From: an uncultured Gammaproteobacteria bacterium
Lineage (GTDB): Bacteria; Patescibacteriota; Patescibacteriia; SG8-24
Assembly: GCA_964491475.1 (NCBI GenBank)
Contig: CAZBFO010000002.1
Coordinates: 80,501 to 144,500, forward strand
Direction of reading: 5' to 3'
DNA: 64,000 bases
The position numbers and the translations under genes are program-made. This document shows positions 13,007 to 64,000 of the stretch, in pieces (positions within the stretch are counted from its first letter, which is position 1; every line of letters begins with the position of its first letter). The notes under the pieces are model-generated. The model was not told the origin of the DNA, did no database searches, and worked only from the letters and a program-made list of their open reading frames with translations.

Positions 13007-13008
13007 GA

Positions 13009-16714: not shown

Positions 16715-16791
16715 TGGTGGGCGGCAGAGGAGTCGAACCTCTGACCTTCACAATGTCAATGTGACGCTCTAACCAACTGAGCTAGCCGCCC
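16715..16791 (-). tRNA. tRNA-Val: tRNA-Val (anticodon GAC), CCA encoded
   Basis: Manual fold: acceptor GGGCGGC/GCCGCCC, D arm GCTC-AGTTGGTTA-GAGC, anticodon stem TCACA/TGTGA with loop TTGACAT, T arm AGAGG-TTCGACT-CCTCT. Confidence 0.8.
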
Positions 16792-16865
16792 TCGGGCCGA
16801 TTTCGACAATGCACACATCTTACGAAAGGTCGGAAAAATAATCAAGCCTCCGGCACTGCGGTCGG

Positions 16866-16895
16866 AATAAAAAAGACCTCATCGTCAGATGAGGT
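16866..16895 (-). terminator. rho-independent terminator for the HAD gene (the stem includes its stop codon)
   Basis: gacctcatc-tgac-gatgaggtc then ttttttatt on the minus strand. Confidence 0.5.
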
Positions 16896-17613: not shown

Positions 17614-17679
17614 TTCGCGCGATTCCTTTCCTGCGTCGGTGCAAAGAACTAGTTTCGGTCCAGCCTAGCTGCCGAACGA

Positions 17680-18867
17680 TCAATTGGCAAGCTGGGCTGC
17701 CGCGACAGGGCGAGGGGAGAGGTCCTTCGTTTGCGCGCGTCCCAGCGACTTGCCGATGGCCGCCAGAACCGTCTTCTCGGCATCGATGATGCCGGTCTGC
17801 GGGAAGCAGACGCGGGCGGTCTTTCGGGTGCCGTCGGGTTTGAGTCCGGCCACCAGGCCGAGCGCGTCGGCGTGCTTTTCGGTCGAGACCAGCGCGCAGA
17901 TGCCGGCCACCTTGCCCGGCGCGTTCTCGGCTTCCTGCTCGTACAGCAGGCCGACGATTTCCGCTTCAGGGGAGTTCATCATCAGCTCGTCGATGACGTC
18001 GGCAAGATGCTCTTCCGAAGCGCCGGCGTGGATGAAATCCTGACGGACGAGCAGCGACCAGGCCATCTTCAAAGTCGGATCGAACTTGAGGCGCGCGAGG
18101 GTGCGGCCCCAAAGCTTGAGCGTGGATATGGAGCGGGTGCGGTACAGGCTCTGCACGATTTCGTCGCGGCGCGCGCCCGCGGCGACGAGCGCGGAGGCGA
18201 TGTCCAGCGTTTTGGGGGTGACGCTGGAAGTCTTGAAGCTGCGCGTCTTGAAGATGATTCCGGCCATCAGGCAGGTGGCCACGTCCTCGTTGAGAAAGTG
18301 CTCGCCGGTGGCCTTGAGCAGCGAGTAGACGCACTCGGCGGTCGAAGTGGCGGTGATGTCGACGGCGTTGAAGTTGCCGTACTGCTCGTTGGCCGTGTCG
18401 TGGTCGACGTTCAGCACCGGGCGGTTGTAGAACAGCTCGGTGTTCTTGCTGAACAACGAACCGAGCGCCGCATAGTCCGGCGTGTCGAGGGTGATGATGC
18501 AGTCGTATTTGAATTCGGTGGTGGCAGTGCTCACGTCGGCGGCGTCGTACCGGCCGCCGTCCTTGGCGGTGACGTTGATGCGCAGCTTGCCGCCTTCTAT
18601 GTCGTACGAAAGCTCGTCGATTTTGCTCTTGGACACGTCCAAGCTGATGACGAACTTCTGCAGGTGGCTGAAGCGGGGGAGGATGCGATCGGCGTTCGGC
18701 AGGAAGCCGATGGCCTTAGTGGGCGCGAAGCCGTCCGCGACGATGTCCACGCGCTTGCCGCGCTTTTCAAAAAAAGCCGCCAGCGCCAATGCCGAGGCGA
18801 CGGCATCGACATTCCATTCCTTGCGGAAGGTGATGAGCAGGTGCTTGCTGGCAAGCGCCGTCTCCAT
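17680..18867 (-). CDS. DHH-family phosphoesterase (NrnA-like oligoribonuclease / pAp phosphatase)
   Basis: NVDHDTANEQYG (DHH-motif region), C-terminal DHHA1-like region. Start METALASK, with GGAG 8 nt upstream (ATG rev 18865-18867). Confidence 0.65.
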   Translation of the reverse strand: METALASKHLLITFRKEWNVDAVASALALAAFFEKRGKRVDIVADGFAPTKAIGFLPNADRILPRFSHLQKFVISLDVSKSKIDELSYDIEGGKLRINVTAKDGGRYDAADVSTATTEFKYDCIITLDTPDYAALGSLFSKNTELFYNRPVLNVDHDTANEQYGNFNAVDITATSTAECVYSLLKATGEHFLNEDVATCLMAGIIFKTRSFKTSSVTPKTLDIASALVAAGARRDEIVQSLYRTRSISTLKLWGRTLARLKFDPTLKMAWSLLVRQDFIHAGASEEHLADVIDELMMNSPEAEIVGLLYEQEAENAPGKVAGICALVSTEKHADALGLVAGLKPDGTRKTARVCFPQTGIIDAEKTVLAAIGKSLGRAQTKDLSPRPVAAAQLAN

Positions 18868-19008
18868 GAATTGTCGCTCCGGAGGAAGGGCCATGGTGCG
18901 AGAGAGATAAGGGGAAAACGTAGCCCGATGAAAAAGTGCTGTCAACTCTTGCTAGAGGAGTCGGCGGCGGCTAAGGTGAACGCTGGCTGCAAAAAAGGAG
19001 GCACGCTC

Positions 19009-19428
19009 GTGACTAGCACGGAACTGCAAAAGGCCATCGTCAGCATCCTTCGAAACTTGGACACGGACGATCCGGTCGTGCGTTCGTTCCATTCCGCATT
19101 CCGTTATCGGCAGCAGAACGCGACCACTTTCGAGTCCGAATCGGACTCGTTGGCTCTGGAGACCGCTCTCGAGCGCGCTTTCGTCGTTTACACGCCTGAC
19201 GAGGTGTGGTCCGGGGAAGTCGATCCCGAAGGGCCGAACATGTTCTTTGCTCTCGACCTCGCCACCGCAGCCGAGAGCATCCCCCTCGGCGTGTACCAAC
19301 GTCTCGTCCGGCGCCTCGAACACATGCAGCGCGAACTGAAGGACGAGGCCGACGTCCGTCAGTTCCTGATGTGCGCGTTCTGCGCCTACGTGCGTCGGAA
19401 GGAAGAAAATCTTTCTCCTGGACCGTGA
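19009..19428 (+). CDS. hypothetical protein (139 aa)
   Basis: RBS AAGGAGG then GTG at 19009. Only the 3' end of a 565-aa track ORF, which is otherwise antisense to the DHH gene. Confidence 0.35.
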   Translation: MTSTELQKAIVSILRNLDTDDPVVRSFHSAFRYRQQNATTFESESDSLALETALERAFVVYTPDEVWSGEVDPEGPNMFFALDLATAAESIPLGVYQRLVRRLEHMQRELKDEADVRQFLMCAFCAYVRRKEENLSPGP

Positions 19429-19540
19429 CATGCGGTCTCCTTCGGAATGTCCAAGCCGATCGAATGCTTCTCCCATCACCATGCCCTTAGAGGCATGGTT
19501 TTTCATTAATGAATGGCCCTTGCCGTGCGGGCGTTCAAGC

Positions 19541-20896
19541 CTATTCCTTCCGTGCAATGTTCTTCAGTGCAGGTTCGATGGCGATCGCGTGCGATGCGCC
19601 GTAGACGACAAACGGTTTTTTCCCCTTTGCCTTGGCAGCTGCGATTTGCCGCACCAGATGCTTGTCCCGTTCGCTGTTCCAGGCGGCGGAAACCTTGTTG
19701 ATGGTGCTGACGTTGCCGCGCGGATCATGCTGCGCGTTGACGGCGTCCATAGCCACCTTTTGGTCGTCCGGAACGCCCTCATTGCGGCGCAGGAGTCCTT
19801 CCAGGGAGGGAACAAGCGTCTTCGCGTCGGCCTTGCCTGTTTCCGCGAAGGCGCGGTTCGCGCCTGCCACGTATTCCGCCACCACCTTCGTCGTGAGCGC
19901 CTCGAGGGTCGGCACGTCTCTCTTGGCCACCGCCGCGTCAACGGCCGTTCTTGTCTCCTCATTGATCCATTTCGTGCCGGCCAAGCGGTCGAAGTCGTAA
20001 AACATGCGCGCAAACTCCAGTTTGGAACTCTCGGGTGTCGCGTCGGGATGCGGTTGGCCGATTTCCGAAGTGAATTGGCGCATGGTCAGATAGAGACCGA
20101 TCTCATCTTTCGAAAAACCTTGTGCGCCAAGTTCGGCCACGATTTGGTCCTGCGGCTTTTCCGGCGAAGTCACCTCAACGCCCTCGTTCTTCGCCGTCCA
20201 GAGCAACGCCCCTTTTTCGCCGAATTTTTTTACGGCTTCGGCTTCGTTGTCCAAGCCGTGCAAAAGCTTGGTGAGGCCGTCTTGAGCGAGGTCTTCCGGA
20301 TTGTATATGCCTTCGACCATGAATACCGCGTCTTTCTTCGAGGTTCCGGCGAGAAAGGCGTCACGCTGCTTTGCAAGCGCCTTCACCGTTTCGGATTCCG
20401 GGTTGTTGGTATGCGCCGTGCCGATTACTTCATAACCGTCCTCGGCAGAACCGTAGGTCAGATTTTTTCCTCCCATGGTTTCGATTTTTTCCCGCATCGC
20501 CGCATCGTCATAGCCGACGAGCAGCTTGATGGCGTTCTCGGCATCAAGTACCCCCTTCTCCCGTTGCAGTTCCTGGAGTCGTTCCGCCTGTCTTGCCGCG
20601 AAAGCGATGGGGGACTCCACAACGTTGCCGTGAATGAGCGACTTGCTTTCCGGGCTGATTTCGGTCGCCAAGGCAGATTCGATGGCCGACGCGTAGGCCG
20701 CGAACTTGGCTTCCTTCTCCTTCTGGAACGCCGCCAGCCTCTCGGGCGCGACGGCGTCCGGAGCGATGCGGTCGGCCTCCGTCTCGATCTCTTGCCGTCG
20801 TTCAGCGCGTGGCTGCTCCAGAGAAACTTGCCGCTCATTTGGGCGTTCTGGCGACGCGGGCCGCTCTTTGGACGCCGCATTTTCGCGTTCATTCAT
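19541..20896 (-). CDS. TraB/GumN-family-like protein with an E/R-rich N-terminal extension
   Basis: VIGTAHTNNPES (GTxH motif) and C-terminal PFVVYGASHAIAIEPAL (the family's second conserved Gly/His motif); start uncertain. Confidence 0.45.
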   Translation of the reverse strand: MNERENAASKERPASPERPNERQVSLEQPRAERRQEIETEADRIAPDAVAPERLAAFQKEKEAKFAAYASAIESALATEISPESKSLIHGNVVESPIAFAARQAERLQELQREKGVLDAENAIKLLVGYDDAAMREKIETMGGKNLTYGSAEDGYEVIGTAHTNNPESETVKALAKQRDAFLAGTSKKDAVFMVEGIYNPEDLAQDGLTKLLHGLDNEAEAVKKFGEKGALLWTAKNEGVEVTSPEKPQDQIVAELGAQGFSKDEIGLYLTMRQFTSEIGQPHPDATPESSKLEFARMFYDFDRLAGTKWINEETRTAVDAAVAKRDVPTLEALTTKVVAEYVAGANRAFAETGKADAKTLVPSLEGLLRRNEGVPDDQKVAMDAVNAQHDPRGNVSTINKVSAAWNSERDKHLVRQIAAAKAKGKKPFVVYGASHAIAIEPALKNIARKE

Positions 20897-20929
20897 ATCG
20901 TTGCGTGCATGGCGATGCGTTATCCTTTT

Positions 20930-21736
20930 TCACGACGTTTCGGGATTGGCCGGATCGGCAGTCATCGCCCTGAATAAGATGGCAATCGGACGTTCTTCGG
21001 CTCGTTCAAGGGAAGTTTGGTCGATTACAATCGAGGCTTCTTCAGCATGCTCGTGCCGGAAATCTTTCTCCAGCTCCATGGCGTTCTCCAGGCAGTAACA
21101 AAGTTCCATGAAACTGGTCTCGTCCTTGTAGCCCGCGTTTGTCGAGGCGTGTTGTTTGAAGTATGCGCTAAAAAAATCGCGAAGATTGGCGCCCGGTTCG
21201 GGGAGGCCTTTCGGCGCAAGGTGATGAGTCCAAATGACGATCTTTGGCTTCACGATTTCGATGTTTTTTCGGATGACGTTCAGTGAGCCGGGCAACTTCG
21301 CACCATCGGCTTTTGGAGGTGCCATGAAGACGATGTCCGGTTGCCCTATTTCCGAGAGCTGGTCGGCGGTAAGCACGTGGGAATTGTCGGCAAAATGGGC
21401 GAGCCGAATGCCATCCACGGTGTAGTGCCAAGCGATGTTCAGGTCGCCATTATGTTCATATACGACCGTGCCGCGCAGGTTGAAGTTCGGGAAAGGGTTG
21501 TCGTTCGGCTTGGTGCGCGGGGCATGTTGCAGCCAGTCGCCGGGTGCGTAGGCGTGGTCGGCGTCAGGTTCGCTCATGAGCACGATATTTGCGCCGAACG
21601 GCTTTCCTCGGAAAGTCGACGGGAACGATGCGCCCAACGTCCATTCCGGTGCGGGATTGAAGGGGTCGATGAGCACCCTGAAGCCTTTCTCGTTTTCTAT
21701 TAAAAATGACGAGAGGCCGATAAAAGTAATCTTCAT
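20930..21736 (-). CDS. MBL-fold metallo-hydrolase
   Basis: Beta-lactamase-fold motif MSEPDADHA (HxHxDH-like). The track ORF begins at an alternative TTG (21745); the first ATG is at 21734-21736 (MKITFIGL). Confidence 0.55.
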   Translation of the reverse strand: MKITFIGLSSFLIENEKGFRVLIDPFNPAPEWTLGASFPSTFRGKPFGANIVLMSEPDADHAYAPGDWLQHAPRTKPNDNPFPNFNLRGTVVYEHNGDLNIAWHYTVDGIRLAHFADNSHVLTADQLSEIGQPDIVFMAPPKADGAKLPGSLNVIRKNIEIVKPKIVIWTHHLAPKGLPEPGANLRDFFSAYFKQHASTNAGYKDETSFMELCYCLENAMELEKDFRHEHAEEASIVIDQTSLERAEERPIAILFRAMTADPANPETS

Positions 21737-30627: not shown

Positions 30628-31821
30628 ATGAAGCACGAAGCCGCAGGTACGGCGGAACTGGCGAGAATGATCGCGGCGGGGTTGCAGACCCCCTGCATTC
30701 TTCTCGACGAGGCCCGCATCGCTTCGAACTATGCTTCGCTGAACTCGGCTTTCGGCGAAGGCGTGGAAATATTCTTCGCCGTGAAGGCCAACAATCATCC
30801 GCTGGCAATCCGCGCCGTCGAACGGGCAGGCGGAAGCTTCGACATCGCGTCCGCGGGGGAGCTGGAACAGCTGCTCGGGCTGGGCATCGACGCCTCGCGC
30901 GTCACGTTCTCCAACCCGATGAAGATTCCTGCCGACATCGACTTCGCTCACGGGAAAGGCGTAACGCTTTTCGCCGCCGACACCGTCGACGAAATCGAGA
31001 AGCTGGCCGTCCGAGCCCCCGGTGCTCGCGTCTACATCCGCGTCGAAGTCGACAACACCGGCAGCGGCTGGCCTCTCGCCGGCAAGTTCGGCGCCACGGA
31101 AGCCGAAGCCGTGCCGTTGCTCGCGCTGGCCGCGTCGAAGGGCCTGGTCCCGTACGGGCTCACCTTCCACGTCGGATCGCAATGCGATCACCTTTCCTCC
31201 TGGCGCGCGGCGCTCGAAAAATGCTCGCGCATTTGGAAGGCGTCGGCGGAACAGGGCATGCCGCTGACCCTTCTCAATCTGGGCGGTGGCATTCCGGCAC
31301 GCTACCAAAAGGACGTGCCGCCGGTCGACGAGATCGGCACTGCCGTGCTGGCTTGGATCAAGGAGCTCATGCCCGACGCGAATCGCGTGTTCATCGAGCC
31401 GGGGAGGTACCTGGTTGCAGAGGCCGGCGTTTTCGTCACCTCGGTCATCGGCAGGGCCGTTCGCAACGGCAAGAAGAAGGTGTTCCTCGACGCCAGCGTC
31501 TTCACCGGGCTGATGGAGGCCTACGAGACCTTCTGGTACCCGACCGAGGTTTTGCGCCTCGACGCGTCGGGCAACCTCGTGACGCCGGGCGATGAGACCG
31601 AAACGGTCGCGCTGCTCGGTCCGACCTGCGATTCGGTCGACGTCATCACCGCCGGCATCGCCTTGCCCCGGATCGAGGTGGGGGACAGGATAGCGTTCTA
31701 CACGGCCGGCGCCTACACCAACTCCTATGAAGGCTACAACGGCTATGCCTTCCCCGCTGTCCATGCGGCCGCCGGGCTGCTCGCAAAGGAAAAAGCGAGG
31801 ACCAAAGTCCTCGCCAAATGA
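30628..31821 (+). CDS. type III PLP-dependent decarboxylase of the ornithine decarboxylase (eukaryotic-type ODC) family
   Basis: FAVKAN (PLP lysine), GGG loop LNLGGGIP, GPTCDSVD, AGAYTNSYEGYNGY. RBS AGCGGAGG before ATG 30628. Confidence 0.8.
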   Translation: MKHEAAGTAELARMIAAGLQTPCILLDEARIASNYASLNSAFGEGVEIFFAVKANNHPLAIRAVERAGGSFDIASAGELEQLLGLGIDASRVTFSNPMKIPADIDFAHGKGVTLFAADTVDEIEKLAVRAPGARVYIRVEVDNTGSGWPLAGKFGATEAEAVPLLALAASKGLVPYGLTFHVGSQCDHLSSWRAALEKCSRIWKASAEQGMPLTLLNLGGGIPARYQKDVPPVDEIGTAVLAWIKELMPDANRVFIEPGRYLVAEAGVFVTSVIGRAVRNGKKKVFLDASVFTGLMEAYETFWYPTEVLRLDASGNLVTPGDETETVALLGPTCDSVDVITAGIALPRIEVGDRIAFYTAGAYTNSYEGYNGYAFPAVHAAAGLLAKEKARTKVLAK

Positions 31822-31837
31822 ATCGCCGAATCCGACC

Positions 31838-32428
31838 CTACTGGCCGGATTTTTTTGTAAGCTTGAGCGCGACGTACTGCTGTCCGCCGAGCGGAACCGG
31901 TACGACTTCGTCGCTCTTCCAGGCACAGCCTTCGCGTTGCTGGGCGTTTCGCAGTCCGCCGGCGACCAGCTCCACCATGAACGGGTTCTTTTCCTGCGAG
32001 TAGTCGTAGACCACCAGGCAGTCCTCGCGATCCATCAGTTCACCCGCCGTTTCCACGAGCAGCTGCGATACCTTCTTGCCCTGCCTGATGGGCCGGACGG
32101 CGATGGCGGTGTAGTAGCAGATGCGGTTCCCGTATTCGGGAAACTGCGCACGCAGCCTGGCCGGATTGACGTAGGCGATGCGCGCCTTCTCGAGGTTGCA
32201 GGTGCAGAGGATGAACCCGCAGACTTCCCGGCCGTCAGTGACCACGAACTTCACGTAGTCCGGGTCTTTGAGCGCCGCCCCGAACGTCTCCTCGCCGTAG
32301 CAGATCTGGTCTTGGATGCACTTCGTGCCGGCGTCGCCGAACGCCTCGAGATAAGTGTTCCACAGCGCGGCGGCAAGCACCGCGTCAGAAATGGTGCTAT
32401 ATTGAGTACAAATGAACGTCGATTCCAT
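31838..32428 (-). CDS. putative GNAT-family N-acetyltransferase
   Basis: RBS AAGGAGG; motif A-like IAVRPIRQGKKVSQLL (Q/RxxGxG/A), about 190 aa. Confidence 0.45.
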   Translation of the reverse strand: MESTFICTQYSTISDAVLAAALWNTYLEAFGDAGTKCIQDQICYGEETFGAALKDPDYVKFVVTDGREVCGFILCTCNLEKARIAYVNPARLRAQFPEYGNRICYYTAIAVRPIRQGKKVSQLLVETAGELMDREDCLVVYDYSQEKNPFMVELVAGGLRNAQQREGCAWKSDEVVPVPLGGQQYVALKLTKKSGQ

Positions 32429-32498
32429 CGCCCCTCCTTTTCGGTGAACGCGTCCGACGAAAGTCGCCGACAGTCATTGTTATCATCACGAACGCCAA

Positions 32499-34184
32499 AT
32501 GTCAACGTTCTTCTCCGACTTTCCGACATTGCTTACCCAGACTTCCATCGTGAATTTTTCGGTGGCGGTATTGGCCGTGCTTCTCGGTCTGATCGTGCTG
32601 TGGGGCAAACGGACCAGCCCGATTCATCAGCTTTTTTTCCTAGTCGCCTTCGACACGGGTTTCTGGTCGTTCTCGTCGACGATGGCCGACGTGGTCCGCG
32701 ATACGGCGTCCGCGATGACCTGGACCAAGATGGCCATCGTGGGCCCCTTCTTCCTGTCTGCGGCGTTCCTCTGCCTGTCGTACTATTTTTCCGAAAAGAA
32801 AGAGACGTTGAGCAAAAAGAAGGCATTCGTCATCTTCCTTCCCAGCATCGTCGCCCTCGCGCTTACGCCCACCAGCCTGAACGTCGTCAGCGTGACCCTG
32901 CAGCCCTGGGGCACCGATTTCGTGCCCGGGCCCCTTTACACGGTGCTTCTCGCGCATCTCCTGCTGTACTTCATGCTTGCCGGCAGGCGCCTGTACCGCG
33001 CCTACCGCAAGAGCGCCGATCCCATCGCCAGAAAGCAGATCCTGTTCCTGATGGCGGGCATCATCCTCGTGGTCGCCTCGGGTGTCATCACCAACCTGAT
33101 CCTGCCGACGGTCTTCGATTACACGCGCGCCAGCGTCATCGGCCCGGCGGCGACGCTGTTCTTCGTCATCCTGACGATGTATGCCATCGTCCGGCACGGC
33201 CTGCTGAACCTGAAGATCATCGCCACGGAAATTTTCGCGGGCATCTTCGTCTTCATCAATTTCATCCAGCTGTTCAATTCCGCGACTACGGCCGAGTTCG
33301 CCACCAACGTGACGGTGTTCGTCTGCACGACGCTCGCCGCGATCCTGCTCATCCGCAGCGTCTTCGACGAGGTCCGCCGGCGCGAGGAAATCCAGACGCT
33401 CGCCGCCCAACTCGAATCCGCCAACGCCCACCTCAAGGAGATGGACAGCCTCAAGAACGAGTTCATTTCCATCGCCTCGCACCAGCTGCGCACTCCCATC
33501 ACCGTCATCAAGGGGTATCTGGCGCTGATGCTCGAGGGCGCCTACGGGCCGCTCTCCGACTCGCTGCACGAGAAGGTCGTGAACATGAACCTGATGAACG
33601 AGCGCCTGGTGCAGATGATCAACAACATGCTGAACGTCTCGCGCATCGAGAAGAACCGCATCGAGTACACCTGCGCCGTCATCGACCTGTATCCGGTCAT
33701 CGGCCAGGCCGTCGAGGAGATGGCCGCAAAGGCATCGATGAAGGGGATCGGCCTGCGCATCGAGGGTGCCACGTTCGGACCAGTCGAGGCGTATGTCGAC
33801 ATGGAAAAGACCATCGAGATACTTTCCAACCTGATCGACAATTCCATAAAGTATTCGTCCAAGGGAACGATCTCGATCTCCGCGACGCTCTTCGTCAGGA
33901 AGAAATGCGTGGTGGTGACCGTCGCCGACGAGGGATACGGCATGAACAAGGAGGACCTGCAGAAAGTCTTCACGAAGTTCTACAGGTCCAGCGACCCGGC
34001 GATCGTGAGCCAGGGCGGGACCGGTCTCGGCCTGTACGTCTGCGCCATGTTCGTCCGCGGCATGGGCGGCGACATCTGGGTCGAGAAGAGCGCGCCCGGA
34101 AAGGGTACGTCCATTTCCTTCGCGCTCCCGACCGAACCGGGCGGGGAATGCGCGGCACCGGCCAAGAAGAAGGCTCGCGTCTGA
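32499..34184 (+). CDS. sensor histidine kinase with polytopic N-terminal membrane domain (no cognate response regulator in the window)
   Basis: About 7 predicted TM helices, HisKA ASHQLRTP, HATPase_c N/G1/G2 boxes (LIDNSIKYS, GTGLGL). Confidence 0.8.
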   Translation: MSTFFSDFPTLLTQTSIVNFSVAVLAVLLGLIVLWGKRTSPIHQLFFLVAFDTGFWSFSSTMADVVRDTASAMTWTKMAIVGPFFLSAAFLCLSYYFSEKKETLSKKKAFVIFLPSIVALALTPTSLNVVSVTLQPWGTDFVPGPLYTVLLAHLLLYFMLAGRRLYRAYRKSADPIARKQILFLMAGIILVVASGVITNLILPTVFDYTRASVIGPAATLFFVILTMYAIVRHGLLNLKIIATEIFAGIFVFINFIQLFNSATTAEFATNVTVFVCTTLAAILLIRSVFDEVRRREEIQTLAAQLESANAHLKEMDSLKNEFISIASHQLRTPITVIKGYLALMLEGAYGPLSDSLHEKVVNMNLMNERLVQMINNMLNVSRIEKNRIEYTCAVIDLYPVIGQAVEEMAAKASMKGIGLRIEGATFGPVEAYVDMEKTIEILSNLIDNSIKYSSKGTISISATLFVRKKCVVVTVADEGYGMNKEDLQKVFTKFYRSSDPAIVSQGGTGLGLYVCAMFVRGMGGDIWVEKSAPGKGTSISFALPTEPGGECAAPAKKKARV

Positions 34185-34200
34185 CGTGAGGGGAGGGGCT

Positions 34201-55115: not shown

Positions 55116-55952
55116 ATGCTGGTAACCGAAACCTCTGTGAGCAGCTGGGATTCCATGTCTTCGCATCAGAAGTTGAGTCTCGGGGTTTTTCTCGTTATTG
55201 GCGTTGCTGCGATTGTCCTGTGGCCTTTTCTTCTCGGCAAGCAGATTTCCTCGCCGTTCAAGCGCAAGACCGGTTCGGTGGTTTTCAAGACCGCCGAACA
55301 GGTGCAGCAGGAACGTGATGATCAGCTTCGGCGGCAGGACACGGACAAGGACGGTCTGAACGATTATGACGAGCTGTACGTTTTCCGCACCAGTCCTTTT
55401 TTGGCAGACAGCGATTCCGACGGGATTCTCGACGGCAAGGAGGTCGCTGACAATACCGACCCGAATTGCCCGCAGGGGAAGACCTGCCGGCAGGCGAGCC
55501 TGGCCTACGGCACGAAGGCGCCGGGCGACGTGAACGCTCCCGACGATCAATCGGCCGAAGGGGGATCGGCGTCGGGGATGACGTCATCGTCCAGCATCGG
55601 CGTGGGCAGCGAGGGCGGCGTCGGAACCGACAGTGCTGCGCAGGGCGGCTCTCCTTCCGCCGATGACAAGCGCTACATGCGGGTGATCACCGAAACGTTC
55701 GGTGACCCGAGCCGACTGACGCCCGACAAGATTAAGACCGCGCTCAAGGCGATGTCGGCGGCGGACCTGCGCACGTTTCTCGGAAAACTGGGCATACCGG
55801 CAGAGGCGCTCAAGAAAGCCGATGACGCCACCTTGCGCCAGCTGATTAACGACACCCTGAACGAAATGGTTACGCAGAACGACGCCGGCGCGTCCGCGGC
55901 AAGCGATGCGAGCGCCGACGCGAACGTGAACGCGCCGTCGCCGACACCGTAG
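55116..55952 (+). CDS. membrane-anchored protein with two thrombospondin type-3-like Ca-binding repeats, an acidic S/G-rich linker and a helical C-terminal domain
   Basis: TM helix LSLGVFLVIGVAAIVLWPFLL; DTDKDGLNDYDE and DSDSDGILDGKEVADNTDPNCPQ (DxDxDGxxDxxE...DPNCP). Start could be 55116 or 55155. Confidence 0.5.
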   Translation: MLVTETSVSSWDSMSSHQKLSLGVFLVIGVAAIVLWPFLLGKQISSPFKRKTGSVVFKTAEQVQQERDDQLRRQDTDKDGLNDYDELYVFRTSPFLADSDSDGILDGKEVADNTDPNCPQGKTCRQASLAYGTKAPGDVNAPDDQSAEGGSASGMTSSSSIGVGSEGGVGTDSAAQGGSPSADDKRYMRVITETFGDPSRLTPDKIKTALKAMSAADLRTFLGKLGIPAEALKKADDATLRQLINDTLNEMVTQNDAGASAASDASADANVNAPSPTP

Positions 55953-56033
55953 ACGACCTTTATCTCGACCGCAATGATTACAGGGAATCACCACGCGAAG
56001 CGCCCCGAAGGGGGACGAACGGGGAGGACGACG

Positions 56034-59000
56034 ATGGCGTCGGCATTGCTTTCCGTTCTTCTTTTTGCGGCCGTTGCGGGCATGCTGTTCGCGTCGCCCC
56101 GTCCGGCGCAGGCGCAGGGCATTCCCGTCGGCGACTCGATTCTCGAATCCGATGTCATCGCCAGGAACGTCAAGAACACGTTGAGTCAAACGCTTGTCGA
56201 AGCTGCAGTCACGTCCGTGGTCAACGGCGTCAATTACTTCACGACGCAGATTGCCTATCAGGCGGCCGTGGCGCTGACCACCTCCTGCAACGGACAAACC
56301 GTCTGTTGGGACAGCAAATCGTTCAAGGACGGTTTCAGCCAGGCGTGGCGCGGGGCCATCGGCGAAGCGGTCGGCACCCTTTCGCAACAGTCAGGCCTTA
56401 CGGCCATGGGATTCAACCTCTGTGCGCCCGGCAAGGCCATCTCGCTGCTCATTCAGTTGGGCATGCTGGACGAGCTGAAACCGCCGCCGCCGAAGTGCGA
56501 CTATACCGCGCTGACCAACAACTGGGATAACTTCAAGGATTCGCTTGCTCCGGACCAGCTGCTGAATTCTCTCAAACCCACTTTCCAGCCCGGACAGGCG
56601 CCTCTCTCGGCATCTTTGCGCATCTTGGACGGCATGGTGGCAATCAAGGAAACGGCCAAGCGCGATGCCATGATGAAGAAGCTCATGAACGCGTCTGCCG
56701 GAGGCGGCTTCGATGACATTCGCGATTCGACATCGGGTCGCGTGAAGGCGCCCGCGTCCGTCACGCATGACGAGTTCGTGCGCATGAGGAAGATGCAGCA
56801 GGACAACCCGCAGCAGTATTCGGCTTCGTATGCTGCCGGACAAATCGCCTACGGAGCCGTGACTTCGGTCGTCATCAACACGGTGCAGACGTTCGCGCAG
56901 ACGCTGGTCGCGCGCATGTGGAACCGTCTGGTGAAGGGGCTGCTCTCTACCGAAGAGCTTATTGCGGCGCAGCCGGACCTCGTGCTCGATCCCGACACGC
57001 TCCTCAATCCTCCGGGGGTCACCGGACTGGAGCCGGCCCTGATTTCCCGGTCGCAGTCTCCCAAGATTCGCGATGCCGGTCTCACGGATCCGTTGCTCAA
57101 CTTCACCTCATGCCCCACTGACGGTCGGGCTCCCGATAACTGCGTCATGGACCAGCAATTCGCCAACGCCGTTCGTGTGGCGGGGCTGAATTCGTACACG
57201 GTCCGCGAAGCGATCAAGCAGGGTTTGCTGCATGGCGACTGGCCGCTCATTTCCGCCAATGATCAGCCCAAGAACCAGGATCCGTTCTGCTACACCTACG
57301 GCTATTGCGAGAGCAACCTGAAGAAGCTCCGTGCCGCCCGCGTCATCTCCATCGGCTGGGAAATCGCCGCCTCGCAAAGCCCCGTGGACAAGCCGTTCTC
57401 TCTCAAGCAGGTGGTCGATGAGTTCAACAACTGCAACGACCAAGGTGCGGCCGACGACCAGCATCGCTTCTGCAAAATGATCGATCCCGATTGGGTGCTG
57501 ACCGTGCCGCTGACGCAGTGTCGTGCCATGGGCTACGGGGAGCAGCTGATCTCGTCCGAGGTCTCGACGCGTTCCGAAATCTGCCTCGACAAGCAGACCT
57601 GTCTGAAGCAGGACGACGCCGGCAATTGCATCGGCGGTTGGGGCTACTGTTCGAAAGAGCGCAACATTTGGCGTTTCAACGGTGATTCCTGCCCGGCGCA
57701 ATTCAACACCTGCCGCGTGCTGACTGCCCGCACGGGCGGCACGCGCAGTTATAACCTGAACACGATCGATCACGGCGTCTGCACCGCCGACAACGTCGGC
57801 TGCCGCAGCTACTCCACATCCCTCAATGCCATCAGCTGCAGCTGCGGTCTGAATGGGTGCAAGGACAGCAACGGCGTGGCCGTGGCCGGCACCTGCTCCG
57901 ATGCCAAGGGCTGCTCATGCTCCGTCACGACGGCATCATGCACGGTGGTGAGAGGCGATTCGTCTTGCACCGTTGCTGACACCGGCAAGGTTTGCCGCTT
58001 GCTTCTGGCTTGCGAGAACGCCACGTGCCCCTGCACCGCCTCGGTGACCTGCACGGTCAAAAACGGCGACAAGTCCTGCTCGTCGGTGACCGGCACGGAA
58101 GCCGACAGCGGCGATGACTGGCTGCTGGATCCGAAACGCTATTTCAATCAGAAGGCCCAGACCTGCGACGTCTCCAGCGCCGGCTGCACCGCGCTGGTGC
58201 GCCTGGCGACCAACCAGTCCCTGAACCTCATCAGGAACGGCAGCTTCGAGCAGCTTGAAGACGGGGATAATAACGGCAACGACGATCACGCCAAGTACTG
58301 GACTCCGTTCGCGACCGTTCCGGCCGCCTCGTTCGGCTCTATCATCGCGGACAGCAGCAAGTCCACCACGGGAAGCAATGCCATTTTGGTCAACGGAGCC
58401 CGTGCATTCGGCGGCGGTACGAACGACTGCTCCGGTTCCCTCTGCACTGCGGACGACGGCTGTCCCTGCACCGCCGGCGGCCTGTCTTGCAAGATCGTCA
58501 AAGGGATGACCAAGTGCACACTGAACCAGAACATCATCCAGACGGACATTCGCGTGCGCGGAAACGCCACCTATACCCTTTCCTTTAACGTCACGCCCGT
58601 AGGTGCCGGCGCTGATGCCGGCGCCACTGCCAAAGTTTCGTTCACCGATTTCTTGGGCAATCCGATTTCGCTCGCTGCAGCGGATGCGGTGTCTACCATT
58701 ACCTATGCCGGCCAGGATCCGACCACCGTTCCCACCGGCACTTGCGACGTGACCGGCGGCAACCTCGAATTCACCTTCAGTGCCACGAAGAACAGCGAGG
58801 TCGCGGCCGTCCGTGGTTCCTGCACTTTCGTGGTCCTCAAGGGCATTGCCGGAGCCACCTTGCAATTCCTGGCGTCCGGACCTGGCGCGTACGTGGACGA
58901 CGTGCAGCTTGAGGAAGGCGGCGGCACTTCTTACCACGACGGGTACGGCGACACCGGCGGCATCGTCGATGCCAGGATGCCTCCGGACTATTTGGGCTGC

Positions 59001-62000
59001 ACCGGCGACGACAGCGACCGTCCGGAATGCGACGCCTTTGCCGGCGTCTGTCGCGAAAGCGAGGTCGGCTGCGACGGGTATACTCCCACCAACGGCGACC
59101 CGCGCATTCCGGCAATCACCAGTCCGCAGGACTTCTGCCCGGCGGAGTGCGTCGGCTATGACGTGTTCAAACAAGCCGCCTCCGACTTCGATCAGGAGAA
59201 GTTCCCGGTCGCCTTCATCCCGTCGACTGCCAAGGAATGCAGCGAGGCCGAAGCGGGCTGCTCGGAGTTCACCAACATCGATACCGAAGCAGTTTCGTAC
59301 TATGCGCACCTGCGCATGTGCGTGAAGAGCGACGATCCGTCCGTGAAGGTGTACTACAGTTGGGAAGGTTCCGACACCACCGGTTACCAGCTGCACGTCT
59401 GGAACCTCAAGCAGACCACCGCTGCGGTGGATCAGGGGACTCCGGCCGAGTTGGCCGCGTTGCCCTCGCCGACGGCCGCGGACGTCTGTGCCGACGCTGC
59501 CTGCGCCAATGCCGGCGTGGCGCCCTGCACGAAGCTTGATGCCAACGCCCAGAACTGCGACAGCAAAGACACCGGCAATGCCGGCGGCAGCACCGTCGGC
59601 TACTGCTCGCGCGCCGACATCGATGCCGGCAACTTCGACTGCCGCGAGTTTTACGATGCCGACGGCAATCGCCACTACCGCCTTCTCTCCAAGACGATCA
59701 TCGCCTCGGCACAGTGCTTCCAATATCGCATCACCACCTCGACGCCGACCGACTGCGCCAACTCCAGCGGACGCTGGGATACCGATAAGGGGCAGTGCAT
59801 CTATAACGCAGACGTCGGCCAGAGCATTTCCTGCGCAGCCGAGCAGAACAATTGCCGGGCCTACAAGGGCAATGCGGCCACCAACGTGCATACCCTCTTG
59901 AGCGACGACTTTGAGGGTGGAGTCAAGAAATGGACGGATTCCACGGATGTCTCGGCGAACGGCTTGGCGCAGTCTCCCGAGTCGGTGACCGTCGGCGGGC
60001 ATTCCCTTAAGGTGCTGCTGGGAGGCGGAGTGAACCGCATAGCCGGTACGGAAGTGGGCGGCATGGTCGCCTCCGCGCGGAGCTACTCGCTGTCCTTCTG
60101 GGCACGCGGTACCGGTTCCGTCTCCGCCTCGCTCCGTGACGCCGTCGTAGATGCGATCTGCACCTTGCCGGCCAGCTGTGATGCCGCCGACGGTTGCGAG
60201 TGCACCACCGAGACAGGAATGAAATGCACGGTACAGAAGGGCAATGCCAACTGCACCATTGCCAAGGGCAGCAACCCCGCGCAGAAATTCGCTCCCGACG
60301 CGCTGCTCTCGTCCGAGTGGAAGCGGTTCACACTCGGTCCGATCATCGGGCCGTCGACTGCGGGTTGGGGGACCACTCCCACCAAGTTCGAACTGTCGGT
60401 GAACGGCATTTGCAGCAACAAGCCTAAAGCCTGCACCACCGCGACTGCCGCCGCGGATTGCGGTGCCGGCACTTGCCTGCAGTCGGACGTTTTCGTCGAC
60501 AATGTCCAGGTCAAGGAGGTGCAAGACAACATTTACGTCGTGCGCGATTCATGGAAGACTCCCGTTTCATGCGACAGCACCGCAGTCGGCTCGCCTTCGC
60601 CGCAGGAAATGCTCGGTTGCAAGGAGTACGCCACCAGCAAGGGCGACAAGGTGGATTTGCGCTCATTCAGCCGCCTGTGCCGTGAAAAGGCCATCGGTTG
60701 CTCGGCATACTCCGACACGCGCAACACTCCCGACAATCCCTACGCCGAATCGTTCAACGCGGTTTGCGAGCTGAAGCGCGATGACGGGACGACGCCACGC
60801 AGGTGCGGCTATGTCCGCTGCACCGGCCCGGCCGGCAACTGCAACACGTCGTTCGACGGAAAGGCTTACGGCTGCACCATCACTGCCGGCTCCGCGTTCT
60901 GCGACGCGCCGATGGCTCCGGATGCTGGCGCTTCCTGCGTCTGCAACTACAACATCCATCACCCGGCCGCTTCCGCGACCGCACCCGTCTTCCTTCCCGA
61001 AGTCTGTCGCGTTGCCGTGGGCGAGAGCCAGTGCCGCTTTAAGCTGGACCATTTCGACACTTCCACGCGCGAGGACCAGAACCCCGACCGCGTGAACGTC
61101 GAAACGGACCGCCGCGTGTACCTGGTGGCCAGAAACGCCGCGATGTGCGCGGCGAACCAAATCGGCTGCACCTCGCTCGGTCAGGCCAAGCTGACGTATG
61201 AGGCGGTGTGCCAGTACAAGAACGCGCCCACCAACAACAAGTGCGGCCTGAAAGCCTGCGCCAAGAGCGGCAAGGCTTGCACGGCCAACGGAGACTGCGC
61301 CGCCAACGACGTCTGCGCTCCGACGACCTGCTCCTGCTCGATCGGCAACGCGACTTGCCGAGTGAACTTCGGAGAGGGGAGCTGCACCTTGGCCTACGAG
61401 CGCCCGCTCGTCGGCAAGTGGGGCGCCTCCGTCGTCAAGGACCTTCCGGCGCAATACGGCGACATCCTCTGCAAGCAGGAAGCCGACGGCTGCGACGCGT
61501 ACTCGTCTAGCGACGGCATCCAGTACTTCAAGGACCCGGCCGACCACGTCTGCATGTATAAGGAGGGCGTCGCCTATCAGAACCAGACCGTCAACGGCTG
61601 GTTCCGCAAGAGCGATTCGGGCCAGAACTTTCCGTGCTATCCGGAGCTCCGCAAGAACGGCGACACCTTCGAGATCTACAAGAATGCCGACTCGGTCTGC
61701 CAGAGCACTACCTGCAGCAATCCGGACGGCTGCGACTGCTACCTGCCCGGCGTGGCGGCGCCCGCCTGCCGCATCCCGTCCGGCGGAACCATCTGCGGAT
61801 ACCAGGGCTGGGTAGGGCAGTGCGAGTCGCAGTACGACCGCTGCCAGGAGTTTGCCGACCCGAGCGTCACCTCGAACGTGAACCCGACCGGTTACCCCTA
61901 TTACTACATAAAGAACGGGCGATTGGACCTGCAGTCCTGCGCCGGCAGCGTCAGCCTCAAGCAGGGCTGCGTGGCCTTCAAGCAGACCAGCGATCCGTCC

Positions 62001-64000
62001 AACCTGTACTCCGCGGCCACCAGCTACTATAAGAGCAAGCGTGATGCGCAGAACGGCAAGGTCAGCCCGGTAAACTGCGACCTGGCGCAGCACGATCCGG
62101 CTTGCGACTATCGTTGCATGTCCGTGCCGGCCGGCCACTGCTCTGTCACTCAAAAGTACGACTGTCGTGCCGATTCCGACTGTCAGCGCTGCAGCAATAA
62201 CGAAGCCATCACTTGTACCAGCAACGGCGACTGCGGCGGCGGCACTTGCAGTGCGCCAGGCCAGACCTGCGTCGGCGTCAAAAAGTACACCAGCGCCTGT
62301 CAGATCAACACCGACTGCAACGCCGCGCTCGGCGAGACTTGCGTCCAGATCGGCACGGTGGCGAATCCGGTGAGCCCCGGCAACGATGCCAACGTCATCA
62401 TTCACGTTTCTCCGGACCGCGAATGCTCGGAGTGGCTTGCCTGCACGACATACAGCACCGCTTGGGACGCCTCCAAGGGGCAATACCGCAAGATTTGCTC
62501 CGGCTTCGGCCCGTGCACCGAGAACAAGAAACTCGGACAGGTCTTCGACTGCGTTTCGCCGCAGACCGCGCCGAAGACGGTCCTGACCGCCACGGAGTAC
62601 TCGAAACGCGACGTGTCTTGGGGCGGATACGAGTACTCGGGCTACACCATTCCGGGACGCTTCTCGCCGACTTTCTTGATGCCGCTAAGCATCGTGAAGG
62701 GCGTCTGCATGAAGCCGGGATCGCCGCCGACGCCGGTGCCGAACACGACCTGCGTCAACACCAGCGACTGCGGTGCTGGCAATTACTGCAAGCAGCTTTC
62801 GGGCGTCTGCCAAAACAGCACCAACGACTGGACGTCCTGCACCGGCGATTCCGAATGCGGAGGCAAGGCAGCGTACTGCAGCTACAACTTCCTCAACACG
62901 CACCGTTACGCGACGGTGCTTGACCAGGACCGTTCTTGCAAGGGCGATGCCGACTGTTCGGGCAACGCGACCGGTTACAGGGACGAATTCGGCAATCCCA
63001 TGGATGGCGCCTGCATCGACAAGCACTGCGCTTACAATCCGGGCGGCGGCAAGTTTAACGCCGCCGACCTGAACTGGGCTCCTCGCTGCCGCGCTTATCC
63101 GGAAGCCGATTCGCCGTATGGGCCGTCCGTCTTGGACAGCGCCAGCGCCGGTAACGAAGGCGGCTACGACCGTTTCGGCCAGGCCAAGGTCAAGAAGGGC
63201 GCTTTCTCCGGAGCCAACGTCTGCGGCAATGGTAACGACTGCGCTTGCAGCTACAGCAAGTGGGTGTACGGCAAGGGTTCCGACGGCGAACGCTTCCTGA
63301 CGTACTCGGCTTCGACCACGACCGGTCCGGTGACCTTCCTCGGTTCCGGCGGCGCGCACAAGATGACTACCGACATCACCGAAGGCATTTGCGTCGGCGG
63401 CGACCGCGAAGGGGAGTGGTGCGATCCGTCGCGACCGATTGTCACCCAGGAAATGAGCGAGAATATCAAGGCCGGCAACAACACTCTCTATGATCCTTGC
63501 GATCAGACGGGCGGCGGCAGGTGCCAGAAGTTGTCGCAGGTGAGCTACCAGCAGGGCTGGCAAGGCTTTTGCCTGGACCTCGACAAGTCGCTCAACGTCG
63601 GAGGCGACAAGGCCAAGTTCGACTGCAACCTTTGGATGCCGGTCGATCAGCTTGAAGGCGCTCCGGACAACAACAACCAGCACGAAGAGGCCGGCTTCAA
63701 CCCGCCGAACTCCGAGCTGCTGTACTGCAACACGGCGCAGGGCCTCGGTTACGGCGTCCCGTCCGATCATTCGGGCATCTACGACTTCCTGATCGTGAAT
63801 GAGGACTTGAACGGCATGGGCCACCTTATCTCGCAGATTGACCCCCCGAGTCCGACTGCCGGCATCATTACTGTTGCCACCGCCGCTTCGGTCGCCTACG
63901 TGGCAGGTCCCGTTGCCGGGTTCCTGGTCGGCATCATCGGTGGCCTCCTGTTCGGCCCCGACGAGCACCAGACGCGCACGATGGACATCAAGACATACAT
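56034..64000 (+). CDS. giant secreted cysteine-rich surface protein (over 2650 aa in the window, 3' end beyond the window) with two CBM4/9-like domains carrying inserted four-Cys modules; TM helix at about 63850-63950
   Basis: RBS GGGGAGGA then ATG 56034; signal peptide MASALLSVLLFAAVAGMLFASPRPAQAQG. Frame 0 stays open to the window end (no frame-0 ORF breaks in the track). The protein has about 200 Cys, with repeated modules DGCPCTAGGLSCKIVKGMTKCT / DGCECTTETGMKCTVQKGNANCT / GCSCSVTTASCTVVRGDSSCT / TCPCTASVTCTVKNGDKSCS. NGSFEQLEDG...W...YVDDVQLEEG and DDFEGG...W...FVDNVQVKEV match the CBM4/9 signatures. Confidence 0.8.
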   Translation, partial: MASALLSVLLFAAVAGMLFASPRPAQAQGIPVGDSILESDVIARNVKNTLSQTLVEAAVTSVVNGVNYFTTQIAYQAAVALTTSCNGQTVCWDSKSFKDGFSQAWRGAIGEAVGTLSQQSGLTAMGFNLCAPGKAISLLIQLGMLDELKPPPPKCDYTALTNNWDNFKDSLAPDQLLNSLKPTFQPGQAPLSASLRILDGMVAIKETAKRDAMMKKLMNASAGGGFDDIRDSTSGRVKAPASVTHDEFVRMRKMQQDNPQQYSASYAAGQIAYGAVTSVVINTVQTFAQTLVARMWNRLVKGLLSTEELIAAQPDLVLDPDTLLNPPGVTGLEPALISRSQSPKIRDAGLTDPLLNFTSCPTDGRAPDNCVMDQQFANAVRVAGLNSYTVREAIKQGLLHGDWPLISANDQPKNQDPFCYTYGYCESNLKKLRAARVISIGWEIAASQSPVDKPFSLKQVVDEFNNCNDQGAADDQHRFCKMIDPDWVLTVPLTQCRAMGYGEQLISSEVSTRSEICLDKQTCLKQDDAGNCIGGWGYCSKERNIWRFNGDSCPAQFNTCRVLTARTGGTRSYNLNTIDHGVCTADNVGCRSYSTSLNAISCSCGLNGCKDSNGVAVAGTCSDAKGCSCSVTTASCTVVRGDSSCTVADTGKVCRLLLACENATCPCTASVTCTVKNGDKSCSSVTGTEADSGDDWLLDPKRYFNQKAQTCDVSSAGCTALVRLATNQSLNLIRNGSFEQLEDGDNNGNDDHAKYWTPFATVPAASFGSIIADSSKSTTGSNAILVNGARAFGGGTNDCSGSLCTADDGCPCTAGGLSCKIVKGMTKCTLNQNIIQTDIRVRGNATYTLSFNVTPVGAGADAGATAKVSFTDFLGNPISLAAADAVSTITYAGQDPTTVPTGTCDVTGGNLEFTFSATKNSEVAAVRGSCTFVVLKGIAGATLQFLASGPGAYVDDVQLEEGGGTSYHDGYGDTGGIVDARMPPDYLGCTGDDSDRPECDAFAGVCRESEVGCDGYTPTNGDPRIPAITSPQDFCPAECVGYDVFKQAASDFDQEKFPVAFIPSTAKECSEAEAGCSEFTNIDTEAVSYYAHLRMCVKSDDPSVKVYYSWEGSDTTGYQLHVWNLKQTTAAVDQGTPAELAALPSPTAADVCADAACANAGVAPCTKLDANAQNCDSKDTGNAGGSTVGYCSRADIDAGNFDCREFYDADGNRHYRLLSKTIIASAQCFQYRITTSTPTDCANSSGRWDTDKGQCIYNADVGQSISCAAEQNNCRAYKGNAATNVHTLLSDDFEGGVKKWTDSTDVSANGLAQSPESVTVGGHSLKVLLGGGVNRIAGTEVGGMVASARSYSLSFWARGTGSVSASLRDAVVDAICTLPASCDAADGCECTTETGMKCTVQKGNANCTIAKGSNPAQKFAPDALLSSEWKRFTLGPIIGPSTAGWGTTPTKFELSVNGICSNKPKACTTATAAADCGAGTCLQSDVFVDNVQVKEVQDNIYVVRDSWKTPVSCDSTAVGSPSPQEMLGCKEYATSKGDKVDLRSFSRLCREKAIGCSAYSDTRNTPDNPYAESFNAVCELKRDDGTTPRRCGYVRCTGPAGNCNTSFDGKAYGCTITAGSAFCDAPMAPDAGASCVCNYNIHHPAASATAPVFLPEVCRVAVGESQCRFKLDHFDTSTREDQNPDRVNVETDRRVYLVARNAAMCAANQIGCTSLGQAKLTYEAVCQYKNAPTNNKCGLKACAKSGKACTANGDCAANDVCAPTTCSCSIGNATCRVNFGEGSCTLAYERPLVGKWGASVVKDLPAQYGDILCKQEADGCDAYSSSDGIQYFKDPADHVCMYKEGVAYQNQTVNGWFRKSDSGQNFPCYPELRKNGDTFEIYKNADSVCQSTTCSNPDGCDCYLPGVAAPACRIPSGGTICGYQGWVGQCESQYDRCQEFADPSVTSNVNPTGYPYYYIKNGRLDLQSCAGSVSLKQGCVAFKQTSDPSNLYSAATSYYKSKRDAQNGKVSPVNCDLAQHDPACDYRCMSVPAGHCSVTQKYDCRADSDCQRCSNNEAITCTSNGDCGGGTCSAPGQTCVGVKKYTSACQINTDCNAALGETCVQIGTVANPVSPGNDANVIIHVSPDRECSEWLACTTYSTAWDASKGQYRKICSGFGPCTENKKLGQVFDCVSPQTAPKTVLTATEYSKRDVSWGGYEYSGYTIPGRFSPTFLMPLSIVKGVCMKPGSPPTPVPNTTCVNTSDCGAGNYCKQLSGVCQNSTNDWTSCTGDSECGGKAAYCSYNFLNTHRYATVLDQDRSCKGDADCSGNATGYRDEFGNPMDGACIDKHCAYNPGGGKFNAADLNWAPRCRAYPEADSPYGPSVLDSASAGNEGGYDRFGQAKVKKGAFSGANVCGNGNDCACSYSKWVYGKGSDGERFLTYSASTTTGPVTFLGSGGAHKMTTDITEGICVGGDREGEWCDPSRPIVTQEMSENIKAGNNTLYDPCDQTGGGRCQKLSQVSYQQGWQGFCLDLDKSLNVGGDKAKFDCNLWMPVDQLEGAPDNNNQHEEAGFNPPNSELLYCNTAQGLGYGVPSDHSGIYDFLIVNEDLNGMGHLISQIDPPSPTAGIITVATAASVAYVAGPVAGFLVGIIGGLLFGPDEHQTRTMDIKTY

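Follow-up and report, generated by a model that had tools for sequence, protein, structure and literature searches.

A giant, cysteine-rich and putatively glycan-binding protein encoded near type IV secretion genes in Patescibacteria

The giant gene at the end of the window

The stretch of DNA analysed here, hereafter the window, comprises 64,000 nucleotides of contig CAZBFO010000002.1 (assembly GCA_964491475.1, positions 80,501 to 144,500 of the forward strand) from a member of the Patescibacteria, ultra-small bacteria also called the candidate phyla radiation (CPR). At its 3′ end lies the gene of a giant, cysteine-rich protein (the giant), which a previous reading made from the sequence only had described as one unbroken frame running from an ATG at position 56034 to the window end. 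This frame indeed contains 2,655 codons and zero stops, for which the chance probability is ~10^-34.7 given the base composition (61.7% GC, with one stop expected per ~34 codons), and the GC content at the third codon position (GC3) reaches 80% in the frame of the giant, as compared with 55% and 51% at codon positions 1 and 2. The stop codon, looked for beyond the window, was found: the protein continues for 599 amino acids (aa) past the edge to a total of 3,254 aa, the window part being the N-terminal 82%, and the full gene occupies positions 8326-18090 of the fetched locus L001. Protein P0001 (3,254 aa, from a 386-kb NCBI contig) is 100% identical to the window protein, and the same protein is present in an independent Logan assembly. 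Because the probability of such an open frame is ~10^-35, and because orthologs are intact and conserved, we regard the giant open reading frame (ORF), on sequence evidence, as a genuine gene under strong purifying selection and not as a pseudogene. The features that define its 5′ end are the following.

56023..56027, + strand: GGAGG ribosome-binding site, from direct sequence reading
56034..64000, + strand: giant ORF, aa 1-2655 of 3,254, open at the window edge, 100% match to P0001
56034..56114, + strand: Sec-type signal peptide, aa 1-27, hydrophobic at aa 1-19, with predicted cleavage between AQA and QG

Both the good ribosome-binding site and the signal peptide claimed earlier for this start are present. 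The GGAGG sequence is located 6 nt before ATG 56034, and the N-terminus is hydrophobic and signal-like (Kyte-Doolittle score of 2.31 for aa 1-19). Inspection of the sequence and its hydropathy places the hydrophobic core before an AxA site, with AQA followed by QG at aa 25-29, as is required for Sec secretion, and a PxxAxAQ motif is kept at the signal peptide in the family consensus. Note also that an in-frame ATG further upstream, at 55974, would extend the N-terminus by a basic n-region (MITGNHHAKRPEGGRTGRTT, window 55974-56033) before the hydrophobic core; a start at 56034 leaves a signal peptide without positive charge, yet the GGAGG is present there. Either ATG, 55974 or 56034, may be the true start of the giant.

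Domain layout, cysteines and nested modules

The window part of the giant can be divided into the segments given below, where model 1 designates an AlphaFold2 prediction of aa 30-1000 based on a 24-sequence alignment, and pLDDT its per-residue confidence score. CBM stands for carbohydrate-binding module.

56115..57080, + strand: N-terminal Cys-poor region, aa 28-349, long helices in model 1 with low confidence (pLDDT 30-60)
57081..57503, + strand: most conserved domain of the family, aa 350-490, compact and alpha-rich, with paired invariant cysteines
57504..57833, + strand: Cys-rich beta-hairpin region, aa 491-600, lower-confidence strands in models 1 and 2, invariant Cys pairs
57837..58079, + strand: tandem pair of six-Cys modules, aa 602-682, found by regular expression; lineage-specific insert, copy 1 with a variant first loop
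58215..58919, + strand: CBM-like jelly-roll 1 (CBM1), aa 728-962, NLIRNGSFE...YVDDVQLEEG
58428..58517, + strand: six-Cys module nested in a loop of CBM1, aa 799-828, a clean indel
58956..59885, + strand: Cys-rich core A, aa 975-1284, identity 0.30-0.58, near-invariant cysteines
59886..60518, + strand: CBM-like jelly-roll 2 (CBM2), aa 1285-1495, LLSDDFEGG...FVDNVQVKE, Pfam CBM_4_9
60159..60254, + strand: six-Cys module nested in CBM2, aa 1376-1407, from the indel pattern; the Pfam match ends at aa 1363
60519..63728, + strand: Cys-rich core B, aa 1496-2565, defined by conservation profile, invariant Cys and variable inserts
61296..61385, + strand: six-Cys module, aa 1755-1784, from regular expression and indel comparison
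61698..61796, + strand: six-Cys module, aa 1889-1921, 46-78 aa with 6 Cys where present versus 12 aa with 0 Cys where absent
63861..63953, + strand: Gly/Ala-rich hydrophobic segment, aa 2610-2640, in a hypervariable linker, Kyte-Doolittle 1.75 (marginal)

In model 1 the helices of aa 30-350 are of low confidence, an alpha-rich domain at aa ~360-500 is predicted confidently, and the region of the tandem modules is predicted as beta structure (pLDDT 62-82). The N-terminal region (aa 28-349) is moderately conserved (identity 0.25-0.41). The confidently predicted alpha domain of aa 350-490 has no match among solved structures and belongs to no known family.

The sequence-only reading had placed CBM4/9 hallmarks (NGSFE...W at the start, YVDDVQL or FVDNVQV at the end) around two beta-sandwich regions, and this assignment holds. 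For the first of them, structure prediction gives a beta-sandwich at aa ~730-970 with pLDDT 70-87, and the predicted beta-jelly-roll fold is superposable on solved CBM4/16/22 modules. For the second, the Pfam profile PF02018 (CBM_4_9) matches aa 1287-1363 at 26.2 bits in the window fragment and 25.5 bits in the full protein, a marginal result at a cutoff of 25.9, while the same profile recognises 13/15 family members with a best E value of 1.2e-10. The alignment to the profile stops at position 77 of 136 (window 59886-60122), just before the module at aa 1376, and the score is marginal because the nested six-Cys module and other inserts interrupt the domain. Nested inserts can thus hide domains from annotation by hidden Markov models, as CBM2 shows. 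Differently from other members of the CBM_4_9/CBM16/CBM22 (PF02018) superfamily, the two domains of the giant are not joined to a recognisable glycoside hydrolase, and in the lineage of the window each is split by inserts, one of them a six-Cys mini-domain of ~45 aa. In the full sequence CBM_4_9 is the sole domain recognised by Pfam, and scans against NCBIfam and PHROGs gave no match. Among PDB sequences no meaningful match was found, either for the single protein or for a full-length family profile of 23 sequences. Self-BLAST detects no long internal repeats, CBM1 and CBM2 being too diverged to find each other.

Cysteines are less numerous than first estimated: instead of about 200, the window part contains 155 (5.8%, versus roughly 0-2% in most other window ORFs) and the full protein 176. 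The number in the mature giant, 176, is even, and in an 84-sequence alignment 105/176 are found in >=70% of members and 90 in >=90%. This even count and the conservation would be consistent with ~88 disulfides. The remainder of the protein had been thought to be filled with DC-containing knots; only 4 copies of that motif exist versus 0.5 expected, a weak enrichment. A C-x6-C-x2-[YFL] hairpin is present instead in 10 copies versus 1.1 expected, two of them in the beta-hairpin region (at aa 553 and 583), three, of the form C-x6-C-x2-[YF], in core A (at aa 1006, 1069 and 1267) and four more in core B. Every family member checked carries 6-11 such hairpins, the motif being conserved throughout.

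A recurring Cys module had also been claimed, with four cysteines. The module is real, since 5-6 regular-expression matches stand against 0.003-0.02 in shuffled sequences, but it has six cysteines, spaced C-x3-7-C-x4-6-C-x-C-x5-9-C-x8-C. Six copies occupy five sites: the tandem pair at aa 602-682 and single copies at aa 799-828, 1376-1407, 1755-1784 and 1889-1921. The inserts were compared at five fixed alignment sites (aa 596-700, 785-835, 1368-1412, 1740-1800 and 1880-1925). In the closer subfamily, ~45-50 residues with exactly six cysteines are found at four of these five sites; the site at aa 1740-1800 has mostly five cysteines, and six or more in five members only. Distant members carry Cys-free loops of 7-24 residues at these sites. 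At the tandem site, close relatives contain 12-18 cysteines versus 8-24 residues without any cysteine in distant members, and at the CBM1 site 47-72 aa with 6 Cys, where the module is present, correspond to 6-12 aa with 0 Cys where it is absent. The suggestion that the module sits inside loops of both CBMs is likewise upheld, module-less relatives having loops of 7-12 residues without cysteine there. Its presence is mosaic: P0019 lacks the CBM1 copy and has the CBM2 copy, and P0031 shows the reverse. As all 112 copies in the 84 proteins fall within the closer subfamily, the six-Cys module is, judged from these alignments, an accessory that belongs to one sub-lineage and does not define the giant.

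The module had been said to correspond to no nameable domain family, and against Pfam isolated copies indeed gave only noise at E<=10. A profile of 56 module copies found nothing significant among 5.8 billion proteins, although it is too short to be sensitive. Like EGF-like domains and knottins, the nested module has six cysteines in ~30 residues and is predicted to be mainly beta. Membership of either class is not indicated, since the spacing differs and there is no Pfam match: the CxC of the module is formed by cysteines 3-4, that of EGF by cysteines 4-5. In the knottin consensus loop 4 has 1-4 residues, versus 5-9 in the nested module.

Family, upstream partner and genomic neighbourhood

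A first set of 94 close homologs ranges from 2,200 to 3,700 aa, every one of them labelled hypothetical. When the 261 aa of highest conservation were used for an exhaustive HMMER search, 1,122 representatives of clusters at 50% identity were recovered, of which 604 had E<=1e-30, and the conserved domain is nearly always located at residues ~350-620 of ~3,000-aa proteins. In GTDB species-representative genomes 357 loci were found. Eighty loci were fetched; they carry intact orthologs, nearly all as a single ORF, with one giant locus per contig and a single architecture of ~3,000 aa. Wherever a record title is informative, it refers to Candidatus Uhrbacteria, Falkowbacteria, Parcubacteria, the Patescibacteria group or Minisyncoccota. 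Many records bearing the gene are titled 'uncultured Gammaproteobacteria bacterium', which looks like a placeholder or mislabelled taxonomy. No relative of the giant family was found in IMG/VR viral contigs, nor of the domain at aa 340-600 in PLSDB plasmids, and an origin from a phage or another mobile element was rejected on these absences.

Directly upstream of the giant lies a small gene whose product we call the partner.

55116..55952, + strand: partner gene, 278 aa, with an N-terminal transmembrane (TM) anchor at aa 22-40 and two TSP3-type calcium-binding repeats

The repeats read DTDxDGLxDYDE and DSDSDG (Pfam TSP3_bac, E 3e-5), and the protein also has a conserved CPxGKxC motif, a linker of low complexity and, at the C-terminus, a helical part that is conserved. 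Two DxDxD motifs are found in 68/73 partner orthologs, and an ortholog directly precedes the giant in each of the 69 loci with enough flank (69/69). In the window the two genes share one reading frame and are separated by one stop, TAG at 55950-55952 (window 55950-56036). This same-frame, single-stop arrangement occurs in 29/72 loci versus ~9 expected by chance, with the first ATG of the giant frame 1-11 codons past the stop, and probably reflects tight translational coupling of partner and giant. As a side note, readthrough of the stop codon would fuse the partner to the giant and thereby membrane-anchor it, an arrangement that coupling explains equally well.

Further upstream, housekeeping genes are found (Wzy-like, GroEL, release factor, epimerase, Sua5, MFS transporter and KsgA). 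Downstream and on the same strand follow genes for a VirB6-like protein, two soluble proteins, PrgI (VirB3), a TrsD/TraC-like protein and VirB4, so that the giant, in the same-strand neighbourhood of virB4, virB3 and trsD, heads a block of type IV secretion system (T4SS) genes. In L001 the distances from the end of the giant are ~+0.1 kb for the VirB6-like gene, +5.6 kb for PrgI and +6.8 kb for VirB4. PrgI and TraC/TrsD were identified by Pfam and NCBIfam, and VirB4 is of the CD1110 type (E 1e-57 in L003). The VirB6-like protein (936 aa) has ~8 predicted TM segments and a long charged hydrophilic tail; it has itself no match in Pfam or NCBIfam, one homolog scores 25.7 bits for TrbL (cutoff 25.9) and several have a precomputed PF19590 assignment. 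The two soluble proteins between the VirB6-like protein and PrgI (L001 21053-23668) are acidic, free of cysteines and TM segments, and ~430 aa long. They recur in 29 fetched loci, have no Pfam or NCBIfam match and are candidates for new cytoplasmic T4SS components.

Among the 34 loci with >=9 kb downstream, the VirB6-like gene is found within 10 kb in 27, and the order giant-(M23 peptidase)-VirB6-like-...-PrgI-TrsD-VirB4 never varies; the 18/18 loci in which the VirB6-like gene starts within ~3 kb contain the remaining genes of the block up to the limit of the flank. The M23 peptidase gene (450-900 aa) follows the giant and precedes the VirB6-like gene in loci of the distant subfamily (L003, L024, L029, L032, L034 and others), and does not occur in the subfamily of the window; the copy of L034 contains 5% Cys. 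This peptidase may be a VirB1-like wall-opening enzyme. The fetched flanks, whose ends lie at virB4 or shortly beyond it, show no relaxase, and the gene calls of L001 and L003 contain nothing of pilin size between the giant and VirB4, although no VirB2 profile was run.

Elsewhere in the window, a 482-aa protein (6655-8103, + strand) has FG-GAP (integrin-alpha-like) repeats and, at its C-terminus, a YkuD L,D-transpeptidase domain, an unusual fusion that could possibly be another envelope or host-interaction protein. ORFs of 515-1,055 aa without any Pfam match lie at 9983-13150, 31727-34189, 3614-5275, 17731-19428 and 19430-20977 on the + strand and at 13949-15583 on the - strand, and some of them may be shadow frames of GC-rich DNA.

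Proposed role and alternatives

Patescibacteria represent a large share of bacterial diversity, and their few cultivated members live attached to host cells; to our knowledge, how docking and host exploitation are achieved is unknown for any lineage outside Saccharibacteria. The T4SS of this phylum has been described as MPF_FATA-like, chromosomal and without relaxase, in a survey that left unannotated neighbour genes uncoloured and stated that 'no adhesins, such as PrgB, were detected' (PMC12102498). In Southlakia, the sole genetically tractable species, the T4SS is essential and its role 'completely unknown' (PMC10633639, PMC11665869), and the locus carries VirB2-like pilin arrays (PMC10633639, PMC11665869, PMC12857230). 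Large, very cysteine-rich extracellular proteins of Peribacteria (PMC4736985) and giant surface proteins of Vampirococcus (PMC8080830) have been proposed to act in attachment, and a disulfide system of the MdbA/VKOR type is reported to be enriched in CPR bacteria (10.1101/335083).

We favour, at a probability of roughly 0.5, the reading that the giant is exported by Sec, binds glycans and makes contact with the host, probably in concert with the T4SS. Its parts are not equally firm: that the giant is an extracellular binding protein we consider quite likely, we infer an adhesin function from its sequence, and the cooperation with the T4SS is put forward tentatively. In Patescibacteria of the Uhrbacteria/Parcubacteria type, the giant would be exported by Sec and then undergo oxidative folding; the folded protein would remain at the cell surface, where the partner with its membrane anchor may hold it. 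The CBM domains and hypervariable inserts would bind glycans or other envelope polymers of the host cell, and this binding would bring the T4SS encoded next to the giant into position at the host. A tuning of specificity at the surface would be the likely function of the nested six-Cys modules and of the hypervariable linkers.

Several points weigh against this interpretation. With a mean pLDDT of 58.8, model 1 is of low quality overall, and >85% of the giant has no recognisable domain, so that an enzymatic or structural role is possible. The giant carries no sortase motif, conserved TM segment or known wall-binding domain with which its retention at the surface could be explained. The link to the T4SS is drawn from gene order, and in these streamlined genomes unrelated housekeeping genes are equally syntenic: KsgA is found upstream in 66/69 loci, with GroEL, release factor and Sua5 conserved there too. 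In the distant subfamily the T4SS block begins only after 1.4-9 kb of intervening genes, and 4/34 loci have no T4SS-type or M23 peptidase gene within ~10 kb.

The strongest alternative, which we nevertheless hold to be unlikely, is a general envelope or surface adhesin, or a fibrous coat protein, that is independent of the T4SS, the adjacency being no more than the frozen gene order of a streamlined genome. Synteny is no weaker for the upstream housekeeping genes than for those of the T4SS, the distance from the giant to the T4SS block varies and some loci lack this block within 10 kb, and giant surface proteins are common in CPR regardless of T4SS (PMC8080830, PMC4736985). However, the co-directional order giant-(M23)-VirB6-like-...-VirB4 is kept down to 27-30% identity, in the subfamily of the window the VirB6-like gene often lies within ~300 nt of the end of the giant or overlaps it (in several loci it is 0.8-2.4 kb away), and the T4SS of this phylum is otherwise without an identified adhesin.

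CBM4/9/16/22 modules are typically appended to glycoside hydrolases (CAZy families), and a second alternative would be that of a secreted giant enzyme acting on host envelope polymers, in which the CBMs provide targeting and an unrecognised catalytic domain resides, for instance, at aa 350-490. This domain, with invariant E443, D484, R433 and R436 and no known fold, and the frequent M23 peptidase neighbour would fit such a role. It is improbable, as no catalytic family of Pfam or NCBIfam and no PDB sequence matches, even with the full-length family profile, and as 88 putative disulfides and hypervariable inserts suit a binding scaffold better.

Much less probable still is a membrane-anchored protein in which a helix at aa 2610-2640 spans the membrane and the C-terminal 600 aa are cytoplasmic. 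The hydrophobic helix noticed previously near the window edge exists as a 30-residue Gly/Ala-rich stretch (GIITVATAASVAYVAGPVAGFLVGIIGGLLF), but it turned out to be a species-specific insert and not a family feature: alignment occupancy is 0.30 and identity 0.05, the lowest conservation in the giant, and the stretch is missing in most homologs and in the closest relative, L004 (60% identity). Similar short stretches are seen in the same variable region of a few homologs (P0002/P0003 AAIILGGIFGGFAGAAAG, P0026 IGGIFGAIFSLGIYAG). Furthermore, the C-terminal 600 aa carry ~14 cysteines conserved family-wide, and therefore an extracellular, oxidising location of this part is implied. The segment was thus rejected as a membrane anchor, being unconserved and of marginal hydrophobicity (1.75) and preceding a Cys-rich C-terminus.

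That the ORF is a pseudogene, a chimera of the assembly or a non-coding shadow frame is effectively refuted: although GC-rich DNA yields long spurious ORFs, with 862 and 606 aa on the opposite strand here, the length of the stop-free frame (P~1e-35), its GC3, the identical protein on two independent assemblies and hundreds of full-length orthologs with invariant cysteines all speak against it.

The reading as a host-contact protein can be set beside several known systems. Like the Peribacteria and Vampirococcus proteins, the giant has a signal peptide, is very large, contains 5-7% cysteine and is of CPR origin. Those proteins average 1,655 aa, form multi-gene clusters, vary between strains and belong to other CPR lineages; unlike them, by their descriptions, the giant has a fixed ~3,000-aa architecture in hundreds of species, an obligate partner and a T4SS neighbourhood. 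PrgB of pCF10, a surface adhesin of Gram-positive conjugative T4SS, is similarly large, Sec-exported and encoded with an MPF_FATA-type T4SS, and the giant could serve the same contact with host or recipient. It differs from PrgB in being far larger and disulfide-rich, with no sequence or domain similarity (Pfam, NCBIfam, PDB sequences), and its C-terminus (...DIILQPEQ) has neither the LPXTG motif nor the TM tail of PrgB-type proteins. The downstream PrgI/VirB3, TrsD and VirB4 correspond to those of published Patescibacteria T4SS (PMC12102498, PMC10633639). The Saccharibacteria locus has its VirB2-like pilin arrays, and the pair of giant and partner is not described in PMC12102498 and PMC10633639. 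LapA/RTX repeat adhesins of Gram-negative bacteria share with the giant a length of several thousand residues, embedded ligand-binding modules and calcium, for which the repeats are here on the partner. They are secreted by a type I secretion system (T1SS), consist of tandem Ig-like repeats and are cysteine-poor; the giant is Sec-exported and disulfide-rich, and has no long internal repeats. It shows no Pfam match of the RTX/T1SS type, no repeats in self-BLAST, and a Sec signal peptide, and is thus no RTX/T1SS adhesin.

In the literature on Uhrbacteria type IV secretion and on giant or cysteine-rich CPR proteins we found no description of the giant family. New are thus the family itself (its homologs having long been deposited as hypothetical), its single conserved architecture, the domain without solved-fold match, the nested six-Cys mini-domain, the obligate TSP3 partner and the T4SS neighbourhood; giant and Cys-rich CPR surface proteins as such, as well as CBM modules, are of already known kinds. 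The six-Cys module offers a clean natural case in which a mini-domain has spread over several loops of the same protein. More speculatively, the giant and its calcium-binding partner might be the missing extracellular host-contact organelle of the Patescibacteria T4SS in Uhrbacteria-type lineages, equivalent to the VirB2 pilin arrays of Saccharibacteria, with a disulfide-stapled scaffold that would include the domain without solved-fold match and on which the six-Cys mini-domains would act as insertable cassettes for retuning host specificity. The giant family in any case provides a concrete, testable candidate for the host-recognition element of a major uncultivated lineage. It may also find use in host prediction, by comparison of the CBM ligand with the envelope glycans of possible hosts and with the giant as a marker gene.

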